Assembly (NCBI GenBank): GCA_003141235.1
Contig: PLLL01000069.1
Span: forward strand, 8,734-56,402
DNA: 47,669 nt
Source: Dehalococcoidia bacterium
GTDB lineage: Bacteria > Chloroflexota > Dehalococcoidia > Dehalococcoidales > RBG-16-60-22
Direction of reading: 5' to 3'
A model generated the notes under the pieces. That model did not search any database. It saw nothing but the letters and a program-made list of their open reading frames with translations, and was not told where the DNA came from. Shown here one piece after another: positions 31,854-35,573 of this stretch; position 1 is the first letter of the stretch, and each line of letters begins with the position of its first letter. The position numbers and the translations under genes were made by a program.

Positions 31854-33953
31854 GTGACCGGAAAAACCAAGTTTCAAAAGATACTGGAACCTTGTAACCT
31901 GGGGCCGCTGCAGCTTAAAAACCGTATGATAAAAACGGCATCAGGAACAGCCAGCAGTTACGACATGGGCGGCTTCGTAAATAAAAGGCACCTCGCCATG
32001 TATGAAGCCATCGCCAGAGGCGGCGTGGGTCTCATCATCGTAGAAATGGGCGGGATTGACCCTCCCCTGGGCCTGCATAATCGCAATCAGCTGCTTCTCA
32101 ACGATGATGAGCATATTTCCGGCTTCAGCGAATTGACCCAGATTATCCACAAACATGGCTGCTATACATTGCAGCAGTTGTTCCATGCCGGGCCATGGCA
32201 TGACCCCCATTCCGGTTTTCAGCCGATTTCCTCTTCATCCATGATGGCGGATGAAGTACTAGGGCTTATTCCGTCTGAAGTGCCCACGGCGCTATCCGGC
32301 AACCAGTTGCCCCGTGGTATAACCATTCCGGAGATTGAAGACATTGTGGATAAGTTCGCCATGACAGCCGAACGGGCGAAGAAGGCCGGGTTTGACGGCG
32401 TGGAGGTAAATTGCGGCACCGGCCACCTCGTTAATAGTTTTCTATCACGCATCTGGAACAAGCGCGAGGATTCCTATGGCTGCCAGAACATGGAAAACCG
32501 AACCCGGTTTGCGGTTGAAATCATACGCGAAATTAAGAGGCGCCTGGGACAGGATTTCGTGATTTCGGCGCTGGTTAATGTCATGGAACTCGGACACGCC
32601 AAAGGCACGACAATCGGTGAAAGTCAACAGATTGCCCGGATTTTACAGAAGGCCGGCGCTGATTGTATCCATGCCAGAGCCAATGCATATTCCGGCCTGC
32701 CTGAAATTATCAGGGCGGAGCAATATTTCTATCCCGAGCCTCCGAAACCATTAATAAAAGAGCTCGATTGGAGGCGTAAAGGGGCAGGGGCGCTTGTCCC
32801 CTTAGCGGCCGCCATTAAAGAAGTAGTCTCGATACCGGTTATTACCGTAGGCAGACTCGACCCGGTCATCGGGGAAGAGGTTCTACGTCAGGGCAAGGCA
32901 GATTTGATTGGTATGACCAGGCGTCTGCTGGCGGACCCGGAGCTCCCGAATAAAGTAGCTTCCGGTAAAATGGAGGAAATACGCCCGTGCACCGCCTGCC
33001 TGTTTTGCACTTCACGGATACGCACTTACCTTCCTATTGCCTGCCAGGTGAACGCCGCTTTAGGTAACGAAGCGGACTACATCATCAAACCGGCGGAGAA
33101 AAAGAAAAGAGTACTGGTAATCGGCAGCGGCCCGGCCGGCATGGAGGCGGCCAGAGTGTCCGCGATTAAAGGGCACGACGTAATACTTTATGAAAAAGGG
33201 CATAGATTGGGGGGCCTGATGCCCTTGGCTTCACTGGTAAAAGGGCATGAAGGTGAATTTTTAATGGAATTTGTTCACTATCTTGAGAGCCAGATTATCA
33301 AGCTGGGTGTGGATATCAGGATGGGGAAAGAACTTAATCTCAAAATAATCGAGGAACTTAAGCCGGATGCCGTCATCGTGGCGGCGGGCGGTATTCCCAC
33401 CGTTCCGGATATACCCGGAATTAATCGCCGCAATGTGGTCAGCGTTCCCAAACTGCACCGCATGCTCAAGTTTTATTTAAGGTTCCTCAGCCCGATGTTT
33501 CTGGGGCAGCTCACAAAACTCTGGATGCCCATCGGTAAAAAGGTGGTTATTATCGGCGGCGGCTTGCAAGGCTGCGAGCTGGCCGAATTCCTGGTCAAAC
33601 ACGGCAGAAAGGTAACCATCGTTGAATCAGCCGAGACTCTGGGCAATGGAGTCCCCGAGCGCAAGCGGCACCCTCTTTTCCGGTGGTTGAATAAAAAGGG
33701 AGTGACCATGATGGCCGGAGTGAAATACGAGGAGATAACAGCAAAAGGGCTGACCATCGTTACAAAAGAAGGCGAGAGGCAGACTATTGAAGCGGATACC
33801 ATAGTGCCGGCGGAGCCGTTACTGCCAAACCCCGGGCTTCTTGAAACTCTTAAAGGTAAAGTCGCCGAGGTCTATCTCATCGGAGATTGTGCTGAGCCCA
33901 AGGTAATAATCGATGCCGTGGCGGCCGGTTACCGCGTGGCCAATTCTCTTTAA
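31854..33953 (+). CDS. NADH:flavin oxidoreductase (Old Yellow Enzyme/2,4-dienoyl-CoA reductase-like, FMN + 4Fe-4S + FAD)
   Basis: LKNRM, ARGGVGLII, AKKAGFDGVEV, N.R.D.YG...ENR.RF, CTACLFC..C.VN, VIGSGPAGMEAA, IIGGG. Confidence 0.92.
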   Translation: MTGKTKFQKILEPCNLGPLQLKNRMIKTASGTASSYDMGGFVNKRHLAMYEAIARGGVGLIIVEMGGIDPPLGLHNRNQLLLNDDEHISGFSELTQIIHKHGCYTLQQLFHAGPWHDPHSGFQPISSSSMMADEVLGLIPSEVPTALSGNQLPRGITIPEIEDIVDKFAMTAERAKKAGFDGVEVNCGTGHLVNSFLSRIWNKREDSYGCQNMENRTRFAVEIIREIKRRLGQDFVISALVNVMELGHAKGTTIGESQQIARILQKAGADCIHARANAYSGLPEIIRAEQYFYPEPPKPLIKELDWRRKGAGALVPLAAAIKEVVSIPVITVGRLDPVIGEEVLRQGKADLIGMTRRLLADPELPNKVASGKMEEIRPCTACLFCTSRIRTYLPIACQVNAALGNEADYIIKPAEKKKRVLVIGSGPAGMEAARVSAIKGHDVILYEKGHRLGGLMPLASLVKGHEGEFLMEFVHYLESQIIKLGVDIRMGKELNLKIIEELKPDAVIVAAGGIPTVPDIPGINRRNVVSVPKLHRMLKFYLRFLSPMFLGQLTKLWMPIGKKVVIIGGGLQGCELAEFLVKHGRKVTIVESAETLGNGVPERKRHPLFRWLNKKGVTMMAGVKYEEITAKGLTIVTKEGERQTIEADTIVPAEPLLPNPGLLETLKGKVAEVYLIGDCAEPKVIIDAVAAGYRVANSL

Positions 33954-33987
33954 ATTACAACGGCACATTAAAATAAATAAAAAAATC

Positions 33988-34051
33988 GATAGTCAATATA
34001 GACAGTCAATATAGAATGCTCTTTGACATCCAAGGGTGTGTATTATACAAT
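33988..34051 (+). promoter_or_regulatory. Sigma70 promoter with upstream 13-bp tandem repeat
   Basis: GA(T/C)AGTCAATATA x2 at 33988-34013; TTGACA (34023-34028)-N17-TACAAT (34046-34051). Confidence 0.65.
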
Positions 34052-34129
34052 TTGTGAACTTGTTCTCAGATGAAATTTTGAAAGGACTTTCTCCACCACT
34101 TCAGAATCCCGGAACATTTTAGAAGATAA

Positions 34130-34774
34130 ATGCAGACATTTATTATTGAAAACCCGTAGGGCAGAAGACCACGCACTTGTGCGTGGATGAATGAAAGCCA
34201 AACGAGCGAAAGCTCGAAACGTTAAAGAACCACGCGCTTGCGCGTGGGTATCTATTAAACGGTTATTACAGAGTGTATTAGTACTTCTTGTACTTACCTT
34301 CCTCGTGTTTCTGGTTATCCATTTATTACCTGGTGACCCCCTATTGCTTTACACCGGGCAAAGCAATGCCGCCACTTTATCAACCGAGCAGCTCCATAGT
34401 CTACGGGCGGAGTATGGATTGGATAAACCATTGCTGGTGCAGTATTTTGTCTGGATATATAACGTTCTCCACGGCGACATGGGAAAATCAATCTTCTATA
34501 ACGATAAGGTAAGCACCCTGATTATTCAACGCATGCCGGTGACTATTCATTTGGGGTTAACGGCCATCCTGATAGGCGCTATTGTCGGTATCACTTTCGG
34601 TGTAATTTGCGCTCTAAGGCGCGGCAAATGGATTGACTCATTGTTAACTTTCATTGCCAACATCGGGATAACAGCGCCTGGATTCTGGGTGGGTATTTTG
34701 ATGATTTATCTTTTTCCCTCCAGCTGCATTGGCTGCCTACCAATGGCTATACCTCGCCCTTTCAGGATTTCTGG
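34130..34774 (+). pseudogene. DppB-like ABC permease gene: interrupted by a mini-element, frameshifted, 3'-truncated
   Basis: MQTFII|insert|KRLLQS..PGDP..; one T missing at 34711-34715; the shifted frame continues SLQLHWLPTNGYTSPFQDFW, matching paralogs at 29862 and 44609; similarity ends at about 34774. Confidence 0.85.
34147..34255 (+). mobile_element. Non-autonomous IS200/IS605-type miniature element (109 bp)
   Basis: Subterminal hairpins CCACGCAC-TT-GTGCGTGG (34169-34186) and CCACGCGC-TT-GCGCGTGG (34230-34247); inserted 3' of TTAT, ends in CTAT; removal restores the permease frame exactly. Confidence 0.8.
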
Positions 34775-35573
34775 AAAGAAGGTGATGGTCATCGGCGGCG
34801 GCCCGGCCGGTATGGAAGCCGCGCGGACTCTGGCAGAACGCGGTCATGAAACTTCTCTCTATGAAAAGTCCGATAAACTCGGCGGTCAATGGAAACTGGT
34901 TTCCAACTTTCTGCCTGATGAGGCGAAGCTTATCAACTATCTGTCAACCGGCATGCGGAAAGCCGGCGTAAAAGTCTTCTTGAACCGGGAGGTAACCGCC
35001 GCGATGGTTGAAGAAATGAAACCGGATGTGGCGGTAGTCGCCACCGGGTCTGACCCGGTCCCTCTGCACGTACCGGGGGCTGACGGTAAAAATGTAGTCC
35101 AGGCTACTGGTGTTTTGGCTGGAAACATTGAACTGGGAAATGAGGTAGTGATAATCGGCGGGAGGCTGGTCGGCCTGACGACTGCCCTTTTCCTGGCTGA
35201 ACAGGGTAAGAAGGTCTCAGTAATCACCCGGAATAAAATTGCCCGCGGACTAATGCATAATACCAAAATGGTCTTCCATGAATACCTGTTGAAAAATAAT
35301 GTCCGCCTGTTTCCTAACTGCACGCCGGAAAGTATTACGGAAAACGGCGTTAACTGCTGGTGGGATAGCGGAGAGCCTCCGGAGAAGGATAATATATTCT
35401 TTTTCTTAAAGGCGGATAACGTAGTTTTGGCCGTCGGGGCGGTTAATAATTACCGGCTGGGCGACCTGATTACCGGAATCGTACCCGAGACCTATAAAAT
35501 AGGGGACTGTTCGGGGAAGCGCAGCGTTTTTGCGGCCATGCGCGAAGGCTCGGAAATAGCGCGGAAGATTTAA
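34775..35573 (+). pseudogene. 3' half (FAD/NAD-binding domains) of an OYE-type oxidoreductase, fused in frame to the permease remnant (ORF 34191-35573)
   Basis: KKVMVIGGGPAGMEAA..LA.RGH..LYEK..LGGQ, VATGS, IIGG..G, IGDC; parallels the C-terminal part of 31854-33953; TIM barrel and Fe-S motif absent. Confidence 0.8.

Follow-up and report, generated by a model that had tools for sequence, protein, structure and literature searches.

Insertion in an ABC permease gene

The window, by which is meant the whole 47,669-nt stretch of Dehalococcoidia DNA analysed here, carries a confirmed 109-nt insertion at positions 34147-34255 of the + strand, within codons 5-6 of an ABC permease gene (Table 1). Using positions 33700-34760 as query against forty-one genomes (the own genome and forty relatives), two adjoining pieces of contig C57 of a genome of the same genus (G001) were found to match window positions 34019-34147 and 34253-34760, with a 4-nt overlap. 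Pairwise alignment of this ortholog with the window is colinear on both sides, with a sole gap of exactly 109 nt. The gene in G001 starts with ATG CAA ACA TTT ATT ATT AAG CGG (MQTFIIKR; the ORF begins MQTFIIKRLLQSV) and encodes an intact permease of 318 amino acids. The proposal of an earlier note on this DNA, that deletion of 34147-34255 restores the MQTFIIKR N-terminus, is thus borne out by an uninterrupted colinear ortholog.

The tetranucleotide TATT is present at both junctions (34144-34147 and 34253-34256), so that the empty site alone is compatible with five registers. The register 34147-34255 was selected because GTATCTAY (Y = C or T) forms the conserved right terminus of relatives at unrelated loci, with unrelated sequence beyond it. 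The TATT repeat in the window consists of this conserved terminus (..CTAT) plus one T, and a target duplication, which is likewise missing in PATEs (palindrome-associated transposable elements), is absent.

The native reading frame, which starts at ATG 34130, meets a TAG within the element, while an ATG at 34191 starts an ORF that extends over 34191-35573. Both the added stop and the new in-frame start, as put forward in the earlier note, can be read directly in the sequence. The product of this ORF is 460 amino acids long and comprises 21 element-derived residues followed by the first ~155 permease residues (81 % identical to G001), with protein similarity to the G001 permease ending at residue 175. 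The 1-nt deletion and the loss of homology to G001 listed in Table 1 mean that the permease gene is broken in two further ways. Past the breakpoint near 34778, the ORF encodes a Pyr_redox_2 domain similar to the C-terminal half of an OYE-type reductase encoded upstream (699 aa; 31854-33953), and the composite ORF could be either a deletion fusion or an assembly chimera. On direct reading, no strong ribosome-binding site was seen before ATG 34191, and there is no indication that a functional permease is regained through the ATG of the element. For annotation purposes, mobile DNA splits the start of the permease gene, and the long ORF called at 34191-35573 is a composite in which an ATG from the element is joined to one half of a permease and to part of an oxidoreductase.

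Architecture of the element

At 109 nt, the element is too short to encode a transposase, which is one of the features by which PATEs are recognised. A second such feature is provided by its two subterminal hairpins, which form a direct repeat in the same orientation (89 % identical, 61 nt apart). These hairpins were the only repeats returned by a repeat search of the element, and no terminal inverted repeat was found. The positions of the two hairpins, of a central hairpin and of the guide and cleavage tetranucleotides given in the earlier note were each confirmed on re-reading the sequence. The subterminal hairpin pattern occurs at two sites only in the 47.7-kb window, against a mean of 0.03 in shuffled sequences, none of which (0/100) reached the observed count. 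Furthermore, the top strand folds into three hairpins with a free energy of -25.6 kcal/mol, compared to -14.9 +/- 2.5 kcal/mol for shuffled sequences (z = -4.2; 0/200 as good).

The central hairpin is the counterpart of a CAAGC-GAA-GCTTG hairpin located within the last tnpA codons of full copies, and between the window and these copies the stem keeps its pairing via changes on both arms. Because the central hairpin matches the tnpA 3'-end hairpin of the full copies, the 109-nt element can be read as a left end and a right end minus the gene. The sole match in Rfam was to Leu_leader, at chance level (E = 0.91; 16 bits against a gathering score of 50). A two-repeat CRISPR-like array, considered on account of palindromic repeats 61 nt apart, was ruled out by homology to IS ends.

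Table 1. Features in and around the insertion (window coordinates; LE, left end; RE, right end)
Feature	Position	Strand	Basis or remark
Promoter-like TTGACA-17-TACAAT upstream of the permease gene	34023..34051	+	11/12 consensus matches, consensus only; region conserved in G001
Original permease 5' end (ATG CAG ACA TTT ATT AT), left flank	34130..34146	+	Colinear with G001 from L058:1032 onward (MQTFII)
TTAT target, left cleavage tetranucleotide (C_L), outside the element	34143..34146	+	Predicted from AAGA
109-nt non-autonomous IS200-type element (very probably a PATE), top strand = +	34147..34255	+	Absent from G001; ends homologous to LE and RE of tnpA-bearing IS
Left-end head (..AACCCGTAGGGCAG..), with guide G_L AAGA at 34165-34168	34147..34168	+	Head motif conserved in relatives
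TAG stop in the native frame	34157..34159	+	Direct reading
Left subterminal hairpin CCACGCACTTGTGCGTGG, 7-bp stem, loop CTTG, 22 nt inside the left end	34169..34186	+	Both arms changed at stem pairs 6 and 7 relative to the family consensus
Conserved ATGAATG block 3' of the left hairpin, containing ATG 34191-34193	34187..34199	+	A34187 covaries with guide base g2
Central hairpin CGAGC-GAAA-GCTCG	34203..34216	+	Homology to hairpin in last tnpA codons
Right guide G_R AGAA	34226..34229	+	Sequence and relatives
Right subterminal hairpin CCACGCGCTTGCGCGTGG, 8 nt inside the right end	34230..34247	+	Same hairpin in RE of autonomous copies
Right tail GTATCTAT; last four bases CTAT (34252-34255) = C_R	34248..34255	+	GTATCTAY conserved at unrelated loci; CTAT predicted from AGAA
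Rest of the permease 5' half	34256..34778	+	1-nt deletion near 34712; DNA homology to G001 lost near 34775-34780, with the frame continuing into a Pyr_redox_2 coding part

Miniature and autonomous relatives

Only one copy of the element occurs in its own genome, a MAG of 2.15 Mb in 122 contigs that is 91.7 % complete. Neither BLAST nor motif scans based on the hairpins, on both end motifs (LE head and RE tail) and on the block following the left hairpin revealed further copies in this genome, and all other hits were at chance level. Among sixty-one genomes (own and relatives), another 109-nt copy (79 % identical, with the central part aligned too) is found at a different locus in a member of another bacterial family (G050). 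It is flanked by TTAT on the left and ends in CTAT, as had been anticipated for other copies, and TTAT likewise precedes two further left ends with the guide AAGA (both in G285). Separate left-end and right-end matches are present in G028, while the same-genus genome G003 contains many right-end matches. Seven copies of a sister miniature of ~118 nt occur in the latter genome, and their flanks match orthologous contigs of the own genome, with intergenic DNA too diverged to place the junctions.

A complete small IS is present on contig C48 of G028, in which a 142-aa ORF is bordered by the LE head and a hairpin on one side and by an RE hairpin with GTATCTAC on the other. Both ends of this IS align with those of the window element, which thus shares with PATEs the homology to the ends of an element encoding a Y1 TnpA. 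The 142-aa ORF product matches the Pfam family Y1_Tnp (3e-32) and the NCBIfam family transpos_IS200 (NF033573, equivalog) with 124 bits (cut-off 55), while its score against REP_Tyr_transpos (30.6 bits) falls below the cut-off of 80. When this TnpA was searched against genome_contigs, 133 relatives could be distinguished, and the eighty that were kept share the end architecture and occur in Dehalococcoidia as well as many other phyla. The parent-type IS is ~530 bp in size, encodes only a Y1 (IS200-type) TnpA and is also found in related Dehalococcoidales MAGs.

TnpA proteins with 66-77 % identity to that of G028 (Dehalococcoidaceae) are encoded in MAGs labelled as Planctomycetota, Atribacterota, Actinomycetota, Desulfobacterota-type, Aminicenantales and others (loci L069-L106). 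The distribution of TnpA among phyla suggests that the ~530-bp IS has spread widely by horizontal transfer.

Complete elements, with LE and RE on one strand, numbered ninety-two, and in seventy-seven of these the predicted left tetranucleotide was found. The sizes of these seventy-seven fall largely between 527 and 563 bp (64 elements), with eleven miniatures of 105-196 nt and two others of 356 and 1210 bp. A 4-bp match on both sides occurs in only 1/77 complete elements and two shared bases in 5/77, the latter being the chance expectation; the absence of a true target-site duplication, as expected in the earlier note, is upheld by these counts.

The right end of the window element is shared with autonomous elements. 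The sequence AAAGAA, followed by the right hairpin of the window and GTATCTAT, lies directly 3' of the end of tnpA in two copies with different flanks in a genome of the window's bacterial family (G247), in two copies in G264 and in the metagenome contigs L161, L193 and L216, with L193 and L216 representing complete IS copies. The autonomous elements sharing this right end have GGAC or GGTC as left guide, together with the consensus hairpin. An autonomous element with the left hairpin of the window and the guide AAGA was not found among the relatives and metagenome matches listed, while a miniature (L274) has the window left hairpin with the guide AGTT. The expectation that a tnpA element with the same hairpins exists thus holds for the right end (G247, G264, L193 and L216), with homologous ends in G028:C48, and was not borne out in these matches for the combination of left hairpin and AAGA. 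The underlying metagenome pattern scan returned at least 120 stretches, and the eighty listed comprise sixty-nine unrelated GC-rich sequences, four left ends and seven right ends.

The only clear tnpA in the MAG, on contig C116, encodes a protein with 37 % identity to the cognate type and is associated with different hairpins. A cognate tnpA was not found in this MAG (91.7 % complete); its presence bears on current activity and does not enter into the definition of the PATE class. Repeats are often missing from MAG assemblies. The C116 locus, at the start of the contig (L004:1-600), represents a second, unrelated IS200-type element, with a 142-aa TnpA (Y1_Tnp; 7e-40) and hairpins of the CCCC..GGGG type with a GCTT-containing loop.

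Guide and cleavage sequences

At the right end of IS608, C-3 pairs with G-35 and T-4 with A-34, while A-2 is without a guide-base partner, and the C-3:G-35 and T-4:A-34 pairs are extended to triples by two bases located 3' of the hairpin (PMC3201880). Pairing between cleavage site and guide is thus crosswise at their first two positions. The IS608 cleavage sites and guides given in a figure legend of PMC5934647 are TTAC (C_L), AAAG (G_L), TCAA (C_R) and GAAT (G_R). The rule was applied here in the form c1:g2, c2:g1 and c4:g4. In the window, AAGA predicts TTAT and AGAA predicts CTAT, and both tetranucleotides occur at the exact predicted sites, in agreement with the earlier note.

The rule was further evaluated on the relatives, leaving out the window and twelve duplicate or unrelated loci. 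At the left ends, the predicted tetranucleotide is found 15-26 nt 5' of the hairpin in 40/45 end types, compared to 13.2 +/- 2.8 (maximum 27) for shuffled guides in 5000 shuffles, where boundaries outside the window were placed by motif rather than by empty sites. Two of these forty left-end matches (L037 and L076) fall inside the LE head and are probably spurious, with CTAC as the true flank. At the right ends, 49/58 types match at all four positions, compared to 24.4 +/- 3.5 (maximum 38) for shuffled guides, and c4:g4 is satisfied in 50/58, considering that the right-end filter fixed c1 as C and c3 as A and left the cleavage side free only at c2 and c4. For both ends, the shuffle controls overstate independence, because the element types are related to each other. 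Judged from the compared ends, these counts show the IS608 guide/target rule to hold across the element family, with exceptions. The guide-site pairs observed are AGTT-CTAA, AAxA-TTAT, AGxA-CTAT (including AGCA-CTAT), GGTT-CCAA, GGAC/GGTC-CCAG, AAAC-TTAG, AACT-TTAA and AGTC-CTAG.

The first base 3' of the left hairpin is identical to guide base g2 in 74/75 LE types (G-G in 43, A-A in 31 and A-T in one), and this position is the one which forms a base triple in IS608. The window conforms at both ends, with A34187 matching A34166 and G34248 matching G34227. Within the stems, pairs 3, 6 and 7 are represented by several Watson-Crick pair types among fifty-three distinct hairpins.

The rule is missed by 9/58 RE types and 5/45 LE types. 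L112, L137, L073, L105 and two G003 copies do not conform to it. An exception to c4:g4 is provided by the Vibrio IS, where the eighteen listed copies have the right guide AGTA with the end CTAC.

The Vibrio IS (Vibrio sp. nBUS_14 and relatives; L113-L132, L139 and L144) is a 531-bp relative that occurs in about twenty copies in one complete genome. The copies are all flanked by TTAT, as their left guide AAAA predicts, and the IS is evidently successful despite the right-end exception. Single-hairpin forms of ~50 nt, made up of the LE head, one hairpin and the RE tail, are found in five genomes (L010, L014, L024, L036 and L055); they keep the left guide and end in CTAC or CTAT, and thereby break the right-end rule.

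Origin and mobility of the element

The element at 34147-34255 is very probably (roughly 90 %) a PATE, that is, a non-coding miniature derivative of the IS200 group (IS200/IS605 family) that is mobilised in trans in an IS608-like manner. It would have formed by the joining of a left end of ~53 nt to a right end of ~56 nt, with loss of tnpA, and would have entered the ABC permease gene in single-stranded form, directly 3' of TTAT and leaving the target unduplicated. On the model of IS608, both subterminal hairpins would be bound by a dimeric Y1 TnpA provided in trans, and the AAGA and AGAA guides 5' of these hairpins would pair with TTAT and CTAT, respectively, thereby positioning the cleavages. 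At both ends, the base directly 3' of the hairpin occupies the position of the IS608 base triple. Excision would re-join ..TTAT to TAAA.. exactly. It is presumed that the element arrived as a miniature rather than decayed in place, that it is able to move and that it can excise without a scar. Mobilisation in trans by TnpA finds indirect support in the copy of identical length elsewhere in G050 and in the seven sister miniatures of G003. The element represents a further example of an already-known class rather than a new kind of mobile DNA.

It is improbable, though the best of the alternatives, that a full-length IS200-type element inserted into the permease gene and lost tnpA in place by internal deletion, in which case the 109-nt form itself has never moved. 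PATEs can arise via deletion of the core in place (PMC3119063), and both the single copy in the own genome and the resemblance of the left and right ends to different autonomous relatives are in keeping with such a history. However, the G050 copy is of the same length, is 79 % identical up to and including the central part, and lies at an unrelated locus in another bacterial family, which points to a miniature that spread, and the sister miniatures are multi-copy in G003 (7 copies).

The Y1 HUH enzymes of REP/REPIN-RAYT systems process short palindromes with a guide-like tetranucleotide, and the window element could be a REP- or BIME-type palindromic repeat handled by a RAYT rather than an IS derivative. 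The short GC-rich palindromes, the REP-like appearance of the single-hairpin ~50-nt relatives (with one inverted pair in G053) and the fact that RAYTs also match Y1_Tnp would fit such an origin. It is nonetheless highly improbable, considering that the hairpins are in direct orientation and flanked by an IS-type LE head and RE tail, that tnpA is enclosed by LE and RE and occurs in multiple copies itself, and that the TnpA is assigned to transpos_IS200 (124 bits; cut-off 55) and not to REP_Tyr_transpos (30.6 bits; cut-off 80). The window element thus differs from REP/REPIN-RAYT systems in hairpin orientation, in its IS-type ends and in the family assignment of the TnpA.

The least credible origin is that of a classical MITE dependent on a DDE transposase, for which the TATT at 34144-34147 and 34253-34256 would be a 4-bp target-site duplication, given that hairpins were found in place of terminal inverted repeats, that three bases of the TATT repeat form part of the conserved GTATCTAY with unrelated flanks beyond it in the relatives, and that only one of the seventy-seven complete relatives has a 4-bp duplication.

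Beyond its classification as a PATE, the element may tentatively be placed, at appreciably less than even odds, in a re-targeted IS200 series, in which alterations of the 4-nt left guide, accompanied by corresponding ones of the base 3' of the hairpin, would reprogram the target site and ends would be swapped as modules. The 109-nt form might, on the same tentative footing, still be moved in peat Dehalococcoidia, with TnpA encoded at another place in the genome or in the community. The idea of module swapping is based on the right end of the window element, which reads the same in autonomous IS that differ from it in left guide and left hairpin.

Occurrence in peat metagenomes

The sequencing runs that contain the window are labelled as peat metagenomes. 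In one of these (X11), a contig of 266 nt joins 236 nt that terminate in the tnpA 3'-end motif to window positions 34223-34252, and this joint indicates that a tnpA-bearing element with the right end of the window element lives in the same community. A 1530-nt contig from a run of another study (X12) spans positions 33800-34448 without a difference, and the site is thus occupied there too. The contigs of a further run (X13) leave positions 34141-34202 without cover and provide no evidence either way on the empty site. Those of an RNA run (X20) touch only positions 34210-34256, with two to four differences, and continue into other sequence; they derive from other copies and hence provide no information on transcription of the window copy. 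The empty-site or circle-junction joints which the earlier note proposed to look for were not found in the contigs of four runs, where contigs drop rare variants. Present-day mobility of the 109-nt element can only be presumed, because it is single-copy, a cognate tnpA is lacking in the MAG and no excision joints occur in these contigs.

Comparison with known systems

The autonomous relatives encode only a Y1 TnpA of ~142 aa (NF033573), as do members of the IS200 group, and at 527-563 bp are shorter than IS200 itself, which is ~700 bp in size. The window element resembles IS608 of Helicobacter pylori in its subterminal hairpins with 4-nt guides 5' of each, the c1:g2, c2:g1 and c4:g4 pairing, the unpaired A at c3, the base triples with bases 3' of the hairpin and the insertion 3' of a tetranucleotide without duplication. 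It differs in that IS608 carries tnpA and tnpB, has imperfect palindromes and uses TTAC (C_L) and TCAA (C_R), whereas the window element is gene-less, with perfect 7-bp stems and a CTTG loop, and its right cleavage site lies 8 nt rather than 10 nt from the hairpin.

PATEs were described in 2011 in Haloquadratum walsbyi (PMC3119063), and PATE-like elements have been observed in Geobacillus stearothermophilus (PMC10055086). As described in these sources, they share with the window element a non-coding size, the lack of inverted terminal repeats, similar near-terminal palindromes, the lack of target duplication and IS200/IS605-related ends (PMC3119063, PMC10055086). The terminal-only PATEs of ~52 bp in Haloquadratum (PMC3119063) resemble the single-hairpin ~50-nt relatives found here. 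The window element differs in its bacterial host, a member of the Dehalococcoidales, and in being single-copy in its own genome. Furthermore, since it is derived from a tnpA-only IS200-group IS of ~530 bp, no tnpB or omega-RNA is involved. A description of this element family was not found among the papers listed by a literature search on IS200/IS605 elements and miniatures in Dehalococcoidia, none of which mentions Dehalococcoidia.

The relatives constitute a natural data set of about 45-75 end types from many phyla, which displays the IS608 guide code, including the triple-forming base, in a tnpA-only IS200 clade with eight target tetranucleotides. This natural covariation series for the guide code is a side product of some value, as it could aid the prediction of IS200/IS605 boundaries or the engineering of TnpA targeting, while leaving the known mechanism unchanged.

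Other palindromic repeats

Several other palindromic sequences were observed in the genomes and metagenomes searched. In G053 (L052), one perfect inverted pair of RE tails surrounds a single hairpin. The 18-nt right hairpin of the window also occurs in another conserved context (..ccgccgaagaatgtggaggtg, the hairpin and ggctccac) on the metagenome contigs L154, L176, L184, L190, L198, L199 and L211, and probably represents another repeat or IS family there that has the hairpin in common. Two other families of palindromic repeats, CCCCGTACTTGATACGGGG and CCCCGATTTCATCGGGG, jointly account for about thirty places in the own genome, for example on contigs C15, C20, C36, C47, C62, C94 and C100. These often adjoin 'gtcattcc' and 'aatccag' motifs, which gives them a REP- or MITE-like appearance, and the IS copies of L193 and L216 sit after CCAG beside a palindrome similar to those of the CCCCGTACTTGATACGGGG and CCCCGATTTCATCGGGG families.
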